Below are positions 5,928 through 14,443 of a stretch of 64,000 bases of DNA, one piece after another; within the stretch, counting starts at the first letter, position 1, and the number at the start of each line of letters is the position of its first letter. Below the pieces are notes generated by a model that made no database searches, was not told where the DNA came from, and saw only the letters and a list, made by a program, of their open reading frames with translations. The position numbers and the translations under genes were made by a program. Source of the DNA: an uncultured Verrucomicrobiae bacterium (GTDB lineage: Bacteria > Verrucomicrobiota > Verrucomicrobiia > Limisphaerales > Palsa-1400); assembly GCA_963707025.1 (NCBI GenBank), contig CAVPOM010000003.1, positions 96,001-160,000 on the forward strand, given 5' to 3'.

Positions 5928-6383
5928 ATGCCGCAATCACTCGCAAAAATTCCGGTGCATGCCGTTTTCTCGACAAAAAACCGCCGTCCCTTCCTCCGCG
6001 ACAAGCCACTGCGCGAGGAATTGCACCGCTACCTTGGCGGCATCCTGACGAATCACGACTGCCAGCCTCTTATCGTCGGTGGCGTTGCTGACCATGTTCA
6101 TATCCGCTCCACGCTCTCGCGCACCTGTGAAGCGGCGGAAATGATCAAGGAGGTCAAACGCGGCTCGTCCCTTTGATTGAAAACCAAAGCCCTGGATTTG
6201 CATGATTTTGCGTGGCAAACCGGCTATGGCATTTTCTCCATTGGTTTTTCCCAGGTTGAGACGGTGCGAGATTACATAGCTGGACAGGAGGAACAGCACC
6301 GCAAAGTTTCGTTTCAGGATGAGTTGCGTGAATTCCTCAAACGCTACGAAATCCAATTCGACGAACGATATGTTTGGGACTGA
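5928..6383 (+). pseudogene. tnpA: IS200-like Y1 HUH transposase (RAYT-like) with an internal nonsense codon
   Basis: HAVFSTKNR, DHVHI (HUH), FAWQTGYG, YIAGQ; in-frame TGA at 6174-6176 where Trp is expected (GSSL*LKTK). Confidence 0.85.
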
Positions 6384-6683: not shown

Positions 6684-8369
<1,686 letters not shown>

Positions 8370-8663
8370 TTATTCGATGATCGCGAGGATATCGTCCGAG
8401 GAAAGGATTTTGTATTCCTTGTCGTTGAGCTTGATCTCCGTGCCGCCGTATTTGCTGACGAGCACGCGGTCGCCTTTTTTGACTTCAAACGGAACTTTTT
8501 TTCCGTTGTCGTCCGTTTTGCCGGTGCCGAGGGCGATGACGATGCCTTCGGTGGGCTTTTCCTTGGCGGAATCGGGGATGATGATGCCGCCTTTTTTAAC
8601 TTCCTTCTCTTCGGCCGGTTCGACAAGAACCCGGTCGCCGAGGGGTTTTACATTGAGTGCCAT
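8370..8663 (-). CDS. groES: Co-chaperonin GroES
   Basis: [14 protein letters not shown]...[13 protein letters not shown]...KYGGTEIK; 97 aa. Confidence 0.98.
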
Positions 8664-8748
8664 AGGTGTCTTTTCTCTTTTTTTGTGTTTTCTGTTTATG
8701 TTCGCTTTCGAATCAAACTCCCGCCGCACCCGCGGCCGGGAAAATTGT

Positions 8749-9417
8749 CTAACTGCCTTCCGCCGGGGCGATTCCACCCGGCAACGGCTCAAATTGCGGC
8801 AACGGCTCGCCTATCACCGCATCAATGGCTTTCATCAGCCGTTCCTTGACCGGTTTGGGCAGCGACGGCAGATCGCCATCCTTGAAATAGCCCAGCCCTT
8901 GCAGGGAAATGCGCCAATTAAAGTCGCCGTTAAAGACGGTGTAAGCGGCGCGCAATCCCTCCTTCAAGCCGATGCCCTGGCGCAGCAATTCGTCAATATC
9001 CAAGTAATCCTTTGCCTGGCTGCGCGTCCAGATCGTGCGCAATTTTGTCGCCAGCAAATCCAGCGCCGAAGCCAGCCGCAGGACCTTGTCGTCTGTTTCC
9101 AGCGGATCGCGCACACGGCGATAGGACAGCCCGCCGAGAAACTGAATTTTTACCACCGCGCCGCGCGTCACCTCGACATCGAGCGTGTTGACGGCGACCT
9201 GCACCGGCTTGGCGCCGCGCAAGAACGGCAGCGACCGCATCAACTCCTCCGGGTTCACCGGCTCGGAGGTGAAAAAGTCGAAGTCCACCGAGAAACGATG
9301 CCCATAATAAAGCGCGACCGCCGTGCCGCCATAGAGCACGAAATGTCTCGGCACTTGCGCCAGCTCCGGCCACAACTGGCGTTGCGCCTCAGGCAACACG
9401 CTCAATTTAGGGCTCAT
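8749..9417 (-). CDS. AbiEii/AbiGii-like nucleotidyltransferase (type IV TA toxin family)
   Basis: [30 protein letters not shown]...R...KDYLDI. Confidence 0.9.
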
Positions 9418-9418
9418 G

Positions 9419-10096
9419 TCAAAGATCAAAATCCTTCAGGAATGCGCGCTTCGGCAGTTCCGGCGCAGGCAGTCCGAAAAAGCGGTGCCACATCGTCCAT
9501 GATTTGATTTCAAACAGTCCCGGCTCGGCGTTGACCAGTGCGTCGCGAAACGCCTCCCAGCCGAGGGCCTGCTTGAATGCCACCACTTCGGGCCAATCCC
9601 CGCGCGCCATCACCTGGCCGAGCAGACGCCGCGGCTGGCCGAGGGAAACCTCCGGCGGCTGCCACCAAATCAACTTGGCGGCGAAGCGTTTCAATTGTTC
9701 TTCATTGGCCGTTTCCGGACCAATCGTCGTGGCCGCGACCACCGGGCCGGCGGCGACCAGTCTCTTCCGGCGCGCGTCCACGTTGACGTTCATCCCTTCC
9801 AGCGCCCGCGAACCCAGCAACGTCAGGTCGCCCGGCTGCGCGAACACCACTTCGTCAATCGTCTCGAAGCCCGCCACGCGCAAAATGGCATAGCCGACCG
9901 TGCGAGTGAGGATCTGCCCGTTGGCCATTTGAATCTGCAAATCCTTTTTCACCGGCTGGACCCCGATCCGTTTCAACACCTCTTCCGGCAGCCAGGTGAA
10001 TTCGCTGCCCGAATCCACTAGCAGCTTCGAAACCACGGCAGACCGTTTCTGATCCTTGTGGTTCTCCACTTTGCAGCCGATGTAAAAAGCGCCCAT
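9419..10096 (-). CDS. Fusion protein: retropepsin-like aspartyl protease + C-terminal putative antitoxin domain
   Basis: N-terminal [13 protein letters not shown] and [11 protein letters not shown] (clan AA motifs); C-terminal IWWQPP...QVMARG...AEPGLF...SW..WH resembles small AbiEii partner proteins; no stop at the junction. Confidence 0.75.
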
Positions 10097-10170
10097 ATTC
10101 TGTCTGGTTTGTTTTTTGACCCCCATTGTGATGGGGTCCGGAAAAGCTGAAGCGCGCTCGCGCCGTCACC

Positions 10171-12114
10171 TTATTTCTTCTCGTCCACCACTTCGGCGTC
10201 AATGATGGGGCCTTCTTCCTTGGCGCCGGCACCGGAGTCGGCGGACGCCCCGCCTTTCGGGCCGGAGGATTCTTTACCGGACCGCGCCTTGGCGGATTCG
10301 GCGGCGGCGGCTTTGTACATTTCGGCGGAGGCGGCCTGCCAGCCTTCGTTGAGCTTCTCGCTGGCGGATTTGATGGCGGCGATGTCCGAGCCTTTCAGGG
10401 CTTCCTTGACGGCGCCGGCGGCGCTCTCGATTTTTTCCTTGTCGGCAGCGGAGATTTTGCCGGCGTTGTCCTTGAGCATTTTTTCGCTGCGATAGACGGC
10501 GTTCTCCGCCTCGTTGCGGGCCTCGACTTCCTCGCGTTTCTGCCGGTCTTCCTCGGCGTGCAGCTCGCCGTCCTTGCGCATCTTTTCGATCTCGTCCTTG
10601 GACAATCCGCTGCTGGCGGTGATGGTGATCTTTTGTTCCTTGCCCGTGCCCAAATCCTTGGCGCTCACGTCCAGGATGCCGTTGGCGTCAATGTTGAAGG
10701 TCACTTCGATCTGCGGCACCCCGCGCGGGGCGGGCGGAATGTCCGACAAATTGAATTTGCCAATCGTCTTGTTGTCGCGCGAAAACTGGCGCTCACCCTG
10801 CAAGACATGGATTTCCACCCCGGGCTGGTTGTCCGAGGCGGTGGAGAAAATCTCCGACTTGCGCGTCGGGATGGTGGAATTGCGTTCGATCAGGCGGGTG
10901 AAGACGCCGCCGAGGGTTTCGATGCCCAGGGACAGCGGCGTCACGTCCAGCAAAAGAACGTCCTTGACCTCGCCCTTGAGCACGCCGGCCTGGATGGCGG
11001 CGCCCACCGCCACCACTTCGTCGGGATTGACCCCCTGGTGCGGCGGCTTGTTGACCAGCGATTCGGCGGCCTGCACCACCCGGGGCATGCGCGTCATGCC
11101 GCCGACCAGCACCAGCTCGTCTATTTTTTCCGCCGTCACTCCCGCGTCCTTCAAGCAGTTCTTGACCGGGCCGATGGTGCGTTCGAAAAGATTGTCGCAA
11201 AGTTGCTCCATTTTGGCACGGGTCAACTTGGCGCTGAGGTGTTTGGGGCCGCTGGCGTCGGCGGTAATGAAAGGCAGGCTGATTTCATAGACCTGCGCGC
11301 TGGAGAGGGCGATCTTGGCCTTTTCGGCTTCCTCCTTGATGCGCTGGAGAGCGTCGGGCTGTTTGCGCAAATCCATGCCCTGTTCGCGTTTGAACTCGTC
11401 CAGCATCCAGTCCATGATGCGGTTGTCCCAGTCGTCGCCGCCCAGATGGGTGTCGCCGTTGGTGGCCTTGACTTCGAAGACGCCGTCGCCGATTTCCAGC
11501 ACGGAAATGTCGAAGGTGCCGCCTCCCAGGTCATAGACGGCGATTTCCTCGTTCTTCTTCTTGTCAAGCCCGTAGGCCAGCGAGGCCGCGGTCGGCTCGT
11601 TGATGATGCGCAGGACCTCCAGGCCGGCGATGCGCCCGGCATCCTTGGTCGCCTGGCGCTGGGAATCGTTAAAGTATGCGGGCACGGTGATGACGGCCTG
11701 GGTGATTTTTTCGCCCAGCCGCATTTCCGCGTCCGCCTTCAATTTGGCCAGGATCATGGCCGATATTTCCGGCGGGCTGAATCGTTTGGTCTTGCCCTCC
11801 ACTTCCACTTCCACGGCGGCATCGCCGTTGGTGGCGCGCACGACCTTGTAAGGCACGCGCTTGATTTCCTCCTGCACTTCATCGAATTTTCGGCCCATGA
11901 ACCGTTTGATGGAGTAAACGGTGTTGCGGGAGTTGGTGACGGCCTGGCGTTTGGCGGCATCGCCGATCAGACGTTCGCTCGTCTTGGTGAAAGCGACGAC
12001 GGAAGGGGTGGTGCGTTTGCCTTCGGAATTCTCCAAGACAACCGGTTCGCCGCCCTCCATGACCGCCATGCATGAGTTGGTGGTTCCTAAATCAATTCCA
12101 ATTACTTTTGGCAT
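10171..12114 (-). CDS. dnaK: Chaperone DnaK (Hsp70)
   Basis: [34 protein letters not shown]; 647 aa. Confidence 0.99.
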
Positions 12115-12155
12115 AAAATTCCTTGCTGTAATGTGCAATTCAGCAAGAATCTATG

Positions 12156-12171
12156 AGCAATCCCAGTGCCA
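12156..12171 (-). promoter_or_regulatory. Sigma54 (-24/-12) promoter of dnaK
   Basis: Minus strand TGGCACTGGGATTGCT fits TGGCAC-N5-TTGCW with exact GG-N10-GC spacing, about 40 nt upstream of the ATG. Confidence 0.75.
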
Positions 12172-12188
12172 CAGCTCAGCGAGTCATA

Positions 12189-12201
12189 TAAGTGGTTGAT
12201 A
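12189..12201 (-). promoter_or_regulatory. IHF binding site
   Basis: TATCAACCACTTA is a perfect WATCAANNNNTTR in an AT-rich patch just upstream of the sigma54 site. Confidence 0.65.
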
Positions 12202-12236
12202 ATAATATACTTATGTATTGTTACCCCACCAATGCT

Positions 12237-12261
12237 GACACAATGATAGAGACATTGTGGC
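12237..12261. promoter_or_regulatory. Candidate enhancer (bEBP) site
   Basis: Dyad CACAATG-N7-CATTGTG about 100 bp upstream of the predicted start; related GCCAAAATGACAC at 12292. Confidence 0.45.
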
Positions 12262-12380
12262 GCAAAGCGCCAGTTTAAGCCGCTTTCAAGGGCCAAAATG
12301 ACACATTCTGCGTTTATCGCTGTGGGTCAATTCCACGTCGTTGGGGCAGTTTAAGGAATTGTGTCGCCCTACATGAGGGT

Positions 12381-12435
12381 GGTAGGGCGCGCACTCCGTG
12401 CGCGCCGTGGCGGGCAACGGAGTGCCCGCCCTGCC
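12381..12435. repeat. REP-like palindrome (GGTAGGGC family)
   Basis: GGTAGGGCGCGCACTCCG ... CGGAGTGCCCGCCCTGCC. Confidence 0.7.
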
Positions 12436-12529
12436 AACTCATTCGGACAGATCACTGACGCATTACGAGAAATGTGAACTCCTGTTTTCACCCGGCTTGT
12501 CGCGTCGGACCAATCATCAATAGCAACAT

Positions 12530-14443
12530 TCAGGCGGCGTTGCTCTCCACATTCGCCGGGGTGCCTTGCTTGAGCCAGACCATCAGTATGCCAATGTCCG
12601 CTGGCGAAACGCCGGAGATGCGCGAGGCCTGGCCCAAGGTCGCCGGCTGGATTTTTCCCAGCTTTTGCCGCGCCTCGGTCCGCAAGCTGGGCACTTTGCT
12701 GTAATCCATCCAGCTCGGAATCTGTTTGTCTTCCAGGCTCTTTAGCTTGGCCACCTCGATTTCCTGGCGGGCGATGTAGCCCTCGTACTTGATGAAGATG
12801 TCCACTTGCTGAATGACTTCCTCCGACAATTCGGCATTCCGGTCTGGAAGATTGGCATAAACCATTTCCGGCCGCCGCAACAGTTGAGCCAGCGTATCGG
12901 CTCCAACCCGGGTCCTTTCCAGGCGCGCCAATTCGTTCTCGATCGCGGTTCGCTTGGCTTCCAACTTCCGGGCATGGCGCGATGGCAACAGCCCGATGTC
13001 ATATCCAAGACCTCCCAGCCTCAAATCAGCATTATCCTGCCGCAGAAGCAAACGATACTCCGCGCGTGAGGTGAACATGCGATATGGCTCGGTCGTCCCC
13101 TTCGTTACCAGGTCATCAATCAAGACTCCAATGTAAGCTTCGTTGCGCCGAAGAATGACGGGAGGCTTTTCCTGCACCCTCCGCACCGCGTTGATCCCGG
13201 CCATCAACCCTTGCGCCCCGGCTTCCTCGTAGCCCGACGTGCCGTTGATCTGTCCGGCCAGAAACAAGTTCCGGCAGACTTTCGTTTCCAGGGACGGATG
13301 GAGCTGCGTCGGGAACGCAAAATCGTATTCCACGGCATAAGCCGGCCGCATGATTTCGGCGTTTTCGCATCCGATAATCGTGCGGACCATCTCCATCTGC
13401 ACGTCGAACGGCAGGCAGGTGGAAAAGCCATTGACGTAGATTTCGTCGGTGGCTATTCCCTCCGGTTCCAGGAAGATCTGCTGTCTTTCCTTCTCCGGGA
13501 ACTTGACGATCTTGTCCTCAATGGACGGGCAATAGCGGGGGCCGATTCCCTCAATCACACCCGAATACATCGGCGATTTATGGAGGTTGGCCCGGATGAT
13601 CGCGGCGGTGGCCTCGGTGGTATATGTAATATAGCAGGGAAGCTGTCCGTTGATCCGACCCAAAATGGAGCCAGGCGGGTATTTGCCGTTGGATCCTGAT
13701 ATATCGCACGCCGGCGCCCCGGAATGTTCCACGTGGAACAAATCGTCTTTCCAGTAAGAAAACCAAGGCACCGGATCGTCGCCCGGCTGGACATCCGTTT
13801 TGGAAAAATCAATGCTCCGCCGCAACAACCGCGGCGGGGTTCCGGTCTTGAGCCGCCCCAATTCCAACCCCAGTTCCTTCAACGAACCGGATAGACTCAT
13901 CGCCGCCCCTTCCCCTGCCCGCCCACCCGATTGCTGATTTTGCCCGATATGCATCAGCCCGCGCAAGAATGTGCCCGTCGTCACCACCACAGTCGTGCCG
14001 TGATATTGCACTTCCATCGTGGTCTCCACCCCTCTGGCCTCGCCGTTGCGATGCAGGATTTTGGTGATTTGCCCCTGCTTGACATCCAGATTCTCCTGCC
14101 TTTCGCAAATCCATTTCTGCCGGAATTGATACGCCTTTTTGTCGCACTGCGCGCGCGGCGCCCAAACCGACGGCCCCCGCTTGGTGTTGAGCATGCGAAA
14201 TTGCAGCCCCGTCATGTCGGTCGCTTTCCCCATTTCACCCCCCATCGCGTCAATCTCGCGCGCCAGGTGTCCCTTGGCCAGCCCGCCAATGGCCGGGTTG
14301 CACGACATCTGCCCAATGGTGTCCGCATTGATCGTCAACAATAAAGTCCGGCAGCCCATCCGCGCCGCCCCCAGCGCCGCCTCCACTCCCGCATGGCCGG
14401 CCCCTATGACAATCACGTCATACTTCCTCGGATAAACAAACAT
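12530..14443 (-). CDS. mnmG: tRNA U34 modification enzyme MnmG (GidA)
   Basis: VIGAGHAG.EAA, MSCNPAIGG, KTGTPPR, GPRYCPSIEDK, GQINGTSGYEEA, YRMFTSRAEYRL. Confidence 0.98.
   Translation of the reverse strand: MFVYPRKYDVIVIGAGHAGVEAALGAARMGCRTLLLTINADTIGQMSCNPAIGGLAKGHLAREIDAMGGEMGKATDMTGLQFRMLNTKRGPSVWAPRAQCDKKAYQFRQKWICERQENLDVKQGQITKILHRNGEARGVETTMEVQYHGTTVVVTTGTFLRGLMHIGQNQQSGGRAGEGAAMSLSGSLKELGLELGRLKTGTPPRLLRRSIDFSKTDVQPGDDPVPWFSYWKDDLFHVEHSGAPACDISGSNGKYPPGSILGRINGQLPCYITYTTEATAAIIRANLHKSPMYSGVIEGIGPRYCPSIEDKIVKFPEKERQQIFLEPEGIATDEIYVNGFSTCLPFDVQMEMVRTIIGCENAEIMRPAYAVEYDFAFPTQLHPSLETKVCRNLFLAGQINGTSGYEEAGAQGLMAGINAVRRVQEKPPVILRRNEAYIGVLIDDLVTKGTTEPYRMFTSRAEYRLLLRQDNADLRLGGLGYDIGLLPSRHARKLEAKRTAIENELARLERTRVGADTLAQLLRRPEMVYANLPDRNAELSEEVIQQVDIFIKYEGYIARQEIEVAKLKSLEDKQIPSWMDYSKVPSLRTEARQKLGKIQPATLGQASRISGVSPADIGILMVWLKQGTPANVESNAA
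13725..13740. other. parS centromere-like site inside mnmG
   Basis: Perfect 16-bp palindrome TGTTCCACGTGGAACA matching the parS consensus; reads LFHVEH in MnmG. Confidence 0.85.

Follow-up and report, generated by a model that had tools for sequence, protein, structure and literature searches.

A retropepsin-like protease fused in frame to the probable antitoxin of an AbiEii/MenT-type pair in the dnaK-groES interval of an uncultured Verrucomicrobiae bacterium

The nearest known counterparts of the locus considered here are toxin-antitoxin systems of the MenT/AbiEii type. In MenT1 the active site consists of R37-x-T39-x-D41-x-D43, K137, D149 and D152, according to PMC11375011. That paper, together with bioRxiv 10.64898/2026.01.19.700257, describes further properties of the family: the toxins arrest growth by modifying tRNA, binding of the antitoxin induces auto-phosphorylation of the toxin, and unrelated, even minimal, antitoxins are able to trigger this modification. 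A second point of reference is the PeSL cassettes of T4-type phages, whose stem-loop copies are proposed in PMC2839356 to recombine with one another and so to drive shuffling. For retropepsins of bacteria in connection with antitoxins, an open-access literature search returned only retropepsins that neighbour type III CRISPR loci in archaea. No description of a protease-antitoxin fusion, of the chromosomal slot discussed below or of its repeated hairpin was found in the titles and abstract starts of the open-access literature.

The window analysed is a stretch of 64,000 nucleotides from an uncultured Verrucomicrobiae bacterium. On its minus strand, dnaK is followed by a 225-aa ORF (10096-9419), a 222-aa ORF, groES and groEL (8330-6684); the features are collected in Table 1. 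The product of the 225-aa ORF carries the triad D28-S29-G30, the motif LLGSRALE (residues 93-100) and a stretch at residues 112-122 that ends in GPVVAA; Pfam search and structure model reveal no sensor domain. An upstream in-frame ATG at 10126 would give a 235-aa form. The initial annotation had described this ORF as a protease joined to a second domain, which lacks an in-frame ATG at its start, and as abutting an AbiEii-like nucleotidyltransferase. Each element of that description is confirmed: two protease profiles match above cut-off, the translation is free of stops and has the motifs as described, the codon aligned with the start of the second domain is ACG, and the 222-aa ORF, which scores 63.1 bits against PF08843 (AbiEii; cut-off 22.5), begins 1 nt past the stop of the fusion. 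Just 3' of groEL, at 5928-6176 on the plus strand, there is a transposase fragment of 82 aa that is IS200-like (Y1; PF01797).

Table 1. Features of the dnaK-groES interval, in coordinates of the window
Feature	Position	Strand	Basis and remarks
dnaK	10171..12111	-	Upstream flank of the slot; ORF list; same neighbour in related loci
Protease half, residues 1-122	9731..10096	-	Clan AA retropepsin-like; Pfam, pLDDT, Foldseek
Linker TTIGPE, six codons	9713..9730	-	15/18 nt identical to L078 tail codons (TAIRPE)
ACG codon at the antitoxin's ancestral ATG site	9710..9712	-	Alignment with ten stand-alone copies
DUF6922-like Trp-rich helical domain, putative antitoxin half, residues 129-225	9419..9712	-	Homologues, model, toxin adjacency
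AbiEii/MenT-type (DUF1814) nucleotidyltransferase, putative toxin	8749..9417	-	PF08843, PADLOC AbiEii models, residue conservation
Hairpin of ~30 nt in the groES leader	8713..8744	-	33-copy consensus; one good copy in the window's genome
groES	8370..8663	-	Downstream flank of the slot, then groEL; ORF list

The fusion is genuine: an aspartyl protease and what is likely the antitoxin of an AbiEii/MenT-type pair form one continuous reading frame. Among the 120 homologues listed, four match the whole query (97-100% coverage), namely P0003 (100% identity, with one residue different), P0004 (90%), P0005 (83%) and P0006 (64%); in the remaining 116 the protease part alone matches. Further full-length members belong to the 90% cluster, including P0124 on 31 contigs and P0125 on 14, and in the metagenome locus L021 dnaK, fusion, toxin and groES follow one another as in the window. 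These finds refute the possibility, raised in the initial annotation, that the fusion is unique to this assembly. The junction (9700-9745) is crossed without gaps by assembled contigs, as distinct from reads, of two runs: one contig spans 9591-9796 (run X3, from the same study as the best holder and possibly its source) and the other 9630-9777 (run X4, from another study). Among the RNA contigs listed, none spans the fusion junction; run X12 contains unfused relatives (joint 9707-10175), and run X16 the protease portion only. The count of fusions is a lower bound, because the region search overlooked P0006, and more of them may be unseen. The fusion is a rare new architecture built from known parts.

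Motif, profile score and predicted fold place the N-terminal half among the retropepsin-like proteases of clan AA. Over residues 24-99, the Pfam profiles PF13975 (32.4 bits, cut-off 28.2) and PF13650 (31.5 bits, cut-off 24.3) both match above threshold, and the score against TIGR03698 (34.3 bits, with a cut-off of 57.35) leaves the protein outside that subfamily. The D-[ST]-G triad, with the codon of the catalytic D28 at 10015-10013, and the hydrophobic-hydrophobic-Gly motif (L93-L94-G95) are kept across 75 aligned sequences. A model of the fusion built from these sequences predicts an all-beta N-terminal domain (pLDDT 83-97 per 10-residue block for residues 1-110) and a helical C-terminal part; between them, residues 118-126 fall below pLDDT 50. 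With the protease model, Foldseek finds 34 PDB matches at E<=0.001, among them foamy-virus and HIV-1 proteases and DDI1; a PDB search with the protease sequence gave nothing significant. In the genome collection, the nearest protease loci have mostly Verrucomicrobiota titles. Three more stand-alone paralogues, 50-57% identical, are present in the genome of the window, G000 (C9:82497, C13:48204, C18:203815). In the slot protease of the same-genus genome G002 (L158), Gly replaces the catalytic Asp, and G010, a genome of the family, has two dnaK-protease-groES-groEL loci (C2:84045, C190:13661), which may reflect duplication or bin contamination.

The C-terminal half belongs to a large family of proteins of ~100 aa, with 560 cluster representatives at E<=0.001, and is modelled as six helices (pLDDT 92.9). 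Its relation to PF21956 (DUF6922) is one of likeness: the window's protein has no match at E<=0.1, nine of its 150 best relatives match below the cut-off, and the nearest Atlas clusters consist of 26-53% DUF6922 members (score 0.91-0.92), so that the domain is filed as DUF6922-like only. The profile and structure checks suggested in the initial annotation have thus identified both halves, the first as a protease by Pfam and Foldseek and the second as a six-helix, DUF6922-like domain. Neither the fusion nor its second domain gave a match to AbiEi with Pfam or PADLOC, and no PADLOC antitoxin model matched. With the domain model, Foldseek gave no match at E<=0.001 and the best VIA-align Z was 4.2, so there is no clear structural relative; a new fold is not implied by this absence. 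Among the 150 best relatives, an N-terminal HTH match occurs in ten, a fusion to AbiEii in one and a protease in none. A search for long fusions (255-2000 aa, best 7,996 candidates) found two proteins, neither with a protease match; its size range makes it blind to protease fusions of 215-237 aa.

In a census of the order (401 genomes, 26 of them with a toxin match at E<=1e-35), each of the 26 toxin loci has the domain immediately before the toxin. An antitoxin role, which the initial annotation had tentatively assigned to the domain, is therefore supported by association. The locus has the two-gene layout of a putative toxin-antitoxin pair, with a small partner directly upstream and co-occurrence at 26/26 toxin loci and 24/26 partner loci. 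In the narrower family census the toxin always has its partner (4/4), and the partner outlasts loss of the toxin (L177, L172; also L042 and L077). Seven of the 26 toxin loci in the order adjoin dnaK or groES. As a partner of AbiEii-type toxins the DUF6922-like domain is widespread (P0150-P0299; L185-L210), in some cases with an N-terminal HTH.

Sequence places the second ORF in the AbiEii/MenT family. PADLOC AbiEii models match it as well, and it contains G30-G31-T32, R41-x-S43-x-D45-x-D47, K125, D137 and D140. Across 32 toxin homologues, G30, G31, R41, D45, D47, K125, D137 and D140 are invariant, and S43 occurs in >=90%. A PDB search with the toxin gave nothing significant, the best profile match being 4o8s at E 0.09. 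Compared with MenT1, as given in PMC11375011, the residue spacing is the same and the phospho-acceptor position is retained, with a serine, S43.

The interval between dnaK and groES is a fast-turnover slot, and relatives of the window hold the protease and the toxin-antitoxin pair apart, in either order. In the family, 24 groES loci spread over 23 genomes comprise nine empty slots, six with the protease only, three with antitoxin and toxin only, two with another small ORF, one fusion and three deletion scars (an internally deleted protease in L173, an antitoxin with a toxin remnant, and an antitoxin stub). In G003, a genome of the same genus, the sequence is 96% identical to the window up to 9732 and 97% identical from 8746 on; the 985-bp block between these points is absent, and the protease has its stop directly after A122. 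In a metagenome set of 27 loci, the antitoxin match was recovered on re-search in 26; 24 of the 26 adjoin dnaK or groES, and in 24 the toxin comes next. Seven of these 26 loci contain a protease, which is fused in one, separate and upstream in one, and located after the toxin in five. An unfused protease upstream of the antitoxin was seen in L032 and L077.

These unfused copies point to the origin of the junction. Besides the many stand-alone copies that end at GPVVAA, a common allele of the protease is 163 aa long and has a basic tail that starts TAIRPE and stays recognisable. The linker of the window closely resembles the tail codons of one such allele (L078; Table 1), and the linker of P0129 still reads TAIRPE. 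Ten stand-alone antitoxins start ATG GCY AAY GAA, where the window and L021 read ACG GCC AAT GA. On these alignments, the linker is the beginning of the tail of a 163-aa allele, which runs straight into the former start codon of the antitoxin. Microhomology between the tail (V-A-K) and the start (M-A-N) is plausible from the proteins; in two DNA alleles of the 163-aa type it amounts to the GCC codon only. Within the main clade, all full junctions seen lack a separate antitoxin start. Four versions of the linker exist in this clade, and P0006 has a fifth. Other arrangements of the same parts are found as well: in L077 the protease stop is followed by the antitoxin ATG in the same frame; in L079 the protease is joined to a decayed antitoxin remnant (24/35 identical to an antitoxin), with the Trp residues lost and the toxin absent; and the protein collection contains in-frame joins of antitoxin and toxin (P0148, P0149, P0300).

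The fusion has arisen at least twice. In a tree of 39 antitoxin rows, five fused sequences cluster in one subfamily (SH-aLRT 86) and P0006 lies in another, and a single clade of fused antitoxins is rejected (p-AU 6.3e-5). Within the main clade, with a 120-row protease tree that is a quick version, individual protease halves are each nearest to a stand-alone allele (96% for P0001, 97% for P0004, 89% for P0005). The hypothesis that the main-clade protease halves form one clade is rejected (p-AU 4e-5); it is not rejected when P0005 is left out (0.14). It follows that the block was transferred to a different protease allele on at least one occasion. Between two fused alleles, the single pair on which the fused-state values are based, dN/dS is 0.15 for the protease, 0.10 for the antitoxin and 0.16 for the toxin, and other pairs give 0.06-0.22. 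Both halves and the toxin are under purifying selection, as in unfused copies, and the low dN/dS indicates that the antitoxin half was constrained during the fused state. The linker is variable: its seven codons have three amino-acid-changing and no silent substitutions between the two fused alleles. The dS of fused alleles (0.24-0.39) is akin to that of their dnaK (0.36).

Taken together, the comparisons make it reasonably likely that the protein is a tolerated deletion fusion whose halves function independently. Since relatives carry the protease and the pair separately and in varied order, a by-product of shuffling is likelier than a switch. In the scenario we propose, a 163-aa protease allele would have sat upstream of an antitoxin-toxin cassette, and a deletion would have taken most of the basic tail, the protease stop and the antitoxin leader. 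The start codon of the antitoxin could afterwards have drifted to ACG or to GCG-type codons. The helical domain would tolerate N-terminal partners and continue to neutralise the toxin, probably by binding and by inducing auto-phosphorylation at S43, by analogy with MenT/AbiEii, and the protease would do whatever its stand-alone relatives do. The block of junction, antitoxin and toxin would move among protease alleles through recombination. An implication is that the toxin likely guards the 5' end of the protease gene against deletion, because the antitoxin now depends on the protease start. Against this reading stands the persistence of the fusion (dS 0.24-0.39), its presence on >45 contigs and its origin on at least two occasions in different antitoxin subfamilies; persistence, two origins and a lost start also fit selection for the fused state.

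One way in which the fused state could be neutral is that it is processed. The protein would then be a constitutive polyprotein, with the protease dimer clipping its own C-terminal extension at or near GPVVAA and thereby freeing the antitoxin as it is synthesised. We regard this as unlikely on balance. In its favour, A122 is invariant in the 75 proteases, with G117, P118 and A121 invariant or nearly so, although the low-confidence segment of the model covers this site. Many stand-alone proteases terminate at GPVVAA, and others bear unrelated tails of variable length. Moreover, the bacterial retropepsin APRc of Rickettsia is reported to process itself in an Asp-dependent manner (PMC4140852). 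The cut described there, however, is N-terminal to the catalytic domain, at residues 92-105 of a construct comprising residues 87-231. Furthermore, the residue after A122 varies (T, G), and 163-aa alleles keep their basic tail, whereas a peptide that is clipped off would need no such conservation. A more ambitious combination, in which the dnaK-groES interval of this Verrucomicrobiota order would be an undescribed array of hairpin-delimited cassettes, carrying toxin-antitoxin pairs and further small genes, with a twice-selected, GPVVAA-cutting polyprotein that ties the AbiEii-type toxin to chaperone stress or phage, is quite unlikely.

The initial annotation had proposed a protease-gated toxin-antitoxin or abortive-infection switch, in which a protease that dimerises or is activated under stress or phage infection would free or destroy the antitoxin and so control the toxin. 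There are points in favour of this idea: two independent fusions have the same polarity, the fusion persists under purifying selection with the antitoxin's own start gone, and the genes are located within a chaperone operon. The catalytic Asp, too, is kept in 11/11 fusion sequences that cover the site; it is missing in 5/116 stand-alone relatives, sample sizes too small to separate fused from stand-alone copies. A regulated gate needs a regular link of protease and toxin, however, which was not found, and a conserved junction, where the linker varies and the GPVVAA end of the protease itself is conserved. In the order, a protease lies within 1.5 kb of the toxin at 1/26 loci, that of the window's genome, and is missing from the other 25; conversely, no toxin lies within 3.5 kb of the protease at 80/80 loci (the best 80 of 120). 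Where the metagenome loci have an unfused protease, it is usually located after the toxin (five of the seven loci with a protease). The seven linker residues vary, the third join, in L079, has decayed to a scar and lacks the toxin, the fusion occupies one of 24 family slots, and the protein has no sensor domain. The junction itself is accounted for by a deletion of a kind common in the slot. The proposal therefore receives no specific support and we consider it distinctly improbable.

It is also conceivable that a separate antitoxin is still made from an internal non-ATG start, either the ACG or a TTG five codons on, in which case the fusion would amount to a long protease tail. A single substitution separates the ACG from the ancestral ATG, and the window and L021 share the TTG. 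On the other hand, P0004, P0005 and P0136 have Ala at the ancestral start position, and GC-rich coding sequence replaces the A/T-rich leader of the stand-alone copies; this alternative is very improbable. Even less probable is a downstream pair that is not toxin-antitoxin, with the helical domain serving the nucleotidyltransferase as a partner in another role. The lack of an AbiEi or PADLOC antitoxin match and of a clear structural relative would be consistent with such a pair, as would the absence of DUF6922 from the open-access literature searched. It is contradicted by the small gene that immediately precedes the toxin-family gene at 26/26 loci, by a toxin that is never alone in the family census (4/4 with partner) and a partner that survives toxin loss, and by HTH fusions, typical of antitoxins, among the relatives. 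Finally, an assembly or sequencing artefact at the junction might be suspected from the fact that most run contigs stop at 9732 with loose ends, unfused alleles being dominant in those runs; it is ruled out for practical purposes by the diverged full-length fusions, L021 and the gap-free contigs of runs X3 and X4.

A hairpin of ~30 nt precedes groES in family loci and recurs between units of cargo, in up to three copies per locus (at 1677, 2694 and 3119 in L022; 287, 776 and 1897 in L032; 2747, 3451 and 4319 in L077; 304 and 1198 in L023; 581 and 1046 in L036). Ahead of stand-alone antitoxins, some copies are followed by a TGATAAAAT-like element. The consensus of 33 copies, chosen by pattern, has an 8-bp stem in which the changes are mostly from C-G to U-G, a variation that fits an RNA stem; the single copy of the window has z = -1.99. 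With two mismatches allowed, the pattern occurs in 169/251 genomes of the order, a count that is noisy because a reversed control matches too, and that was used as a lead only. Rfam has no match in window positions 8300-10300, and no sigma-70 site was called in 8300-12600. Integron attC sites have the consensus RYYYAAC ... GTTRRRY and are about 57-141 bp long; on inspection, ends of this kind in that order are absent from the 33 aligned hairpin copies, and G000 (88% complete) has no match to the integron integrase model TIGR02249 above the cut-off.

The slot has other cargo as well. A PIN-like toxin (160 aa, below the Pfam cut-off) with a partner of 61-66 aa forms another cassette (L077 2385-4178, L023 336-1012), and the small partner of this pair occurs by itself in L163. 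In L077 a 114-aa ORF, the PIN pair, the protease and the antitoxin stand in a row. Several cargo ORFs have no Pfam match at E<=0.01 and are candidates for small defence genes: L031 2960-3565 (202 aa), L034 2597-3397 (267 aa), L036 636-1040 (135 aa), L040 25-567 (181 aa) and L022 1314-1607 (98 aa). Related, repeat-rich and apparently non-coding stretches between hairpins (L031 3610-3975, L034 3415-3975, L040 567-1026) may be REP-like elements.

The locus is a natural example of a new domain architecture arising in a turnover hotspot, in which the precursors, the origin of the junction, a second fusion and a scar can all be seen. Beyond that, it draws attention to a DUF6922-like partner of AbiEii/MenT toxins that is widespread and uncharacterised. 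Were the protease to gate the antitoxin, a nucleotidyltransferase toxin would be under the control of a self-contained proteolytic switch, for which no description was found. The broader finding may be the chaperone-operon slot with its hairpin-delimited units, which could be mined for small defence genes.

Compared with known systems, the protease half shares with the clan AA retropepsins (PF13975, PF13650 and TIGR03698-like proteins, the RVP domain of DDI1, and APRc) the D-S/T-G triad, the hydrophobic-hydrophobic-Gly motif and the predicted retropepsin fold. It differs in that its score is below the TIGR03698 cut-off and it has no solved relative by sequence, and in the addition of a C-terminal antitoxin-like domain to a protease with neither membrane anchor nor N-terminal extension. 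With MenAT1, MenAT3 and AbiE (AbiEi-AbiEii), the pair shares the DUF1814/PF08843 toxin and a small partner gene upstream. In contrast to these systems, the partner in the window is a DUF6922-like six-helix domain that has no AbiEi match and is fused behind a protease. Because the partner is not AbiEi, the system is not a canonical AbiE system.

The slot as a whole resembles the chromosomal gene-turnover hotspots described in PMC5635113, with which it shares small variable cargo, conserved flanks and the lack of an adjacent mobile-element enzyme; mosaic alleles, suggestive of homologous recombination, are also common to both. Unlike in that description, the hairpin resident in the groES leader often recurs here as a spacer between the cargo units. 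Repeated short stem-loops between variable genes are in turn a feature shared with the PeSL cassettes of T4-type phages, as presented in PMC2839356, whereas the slot described here is located in a bacterial chaperone operon rather than in a phage.
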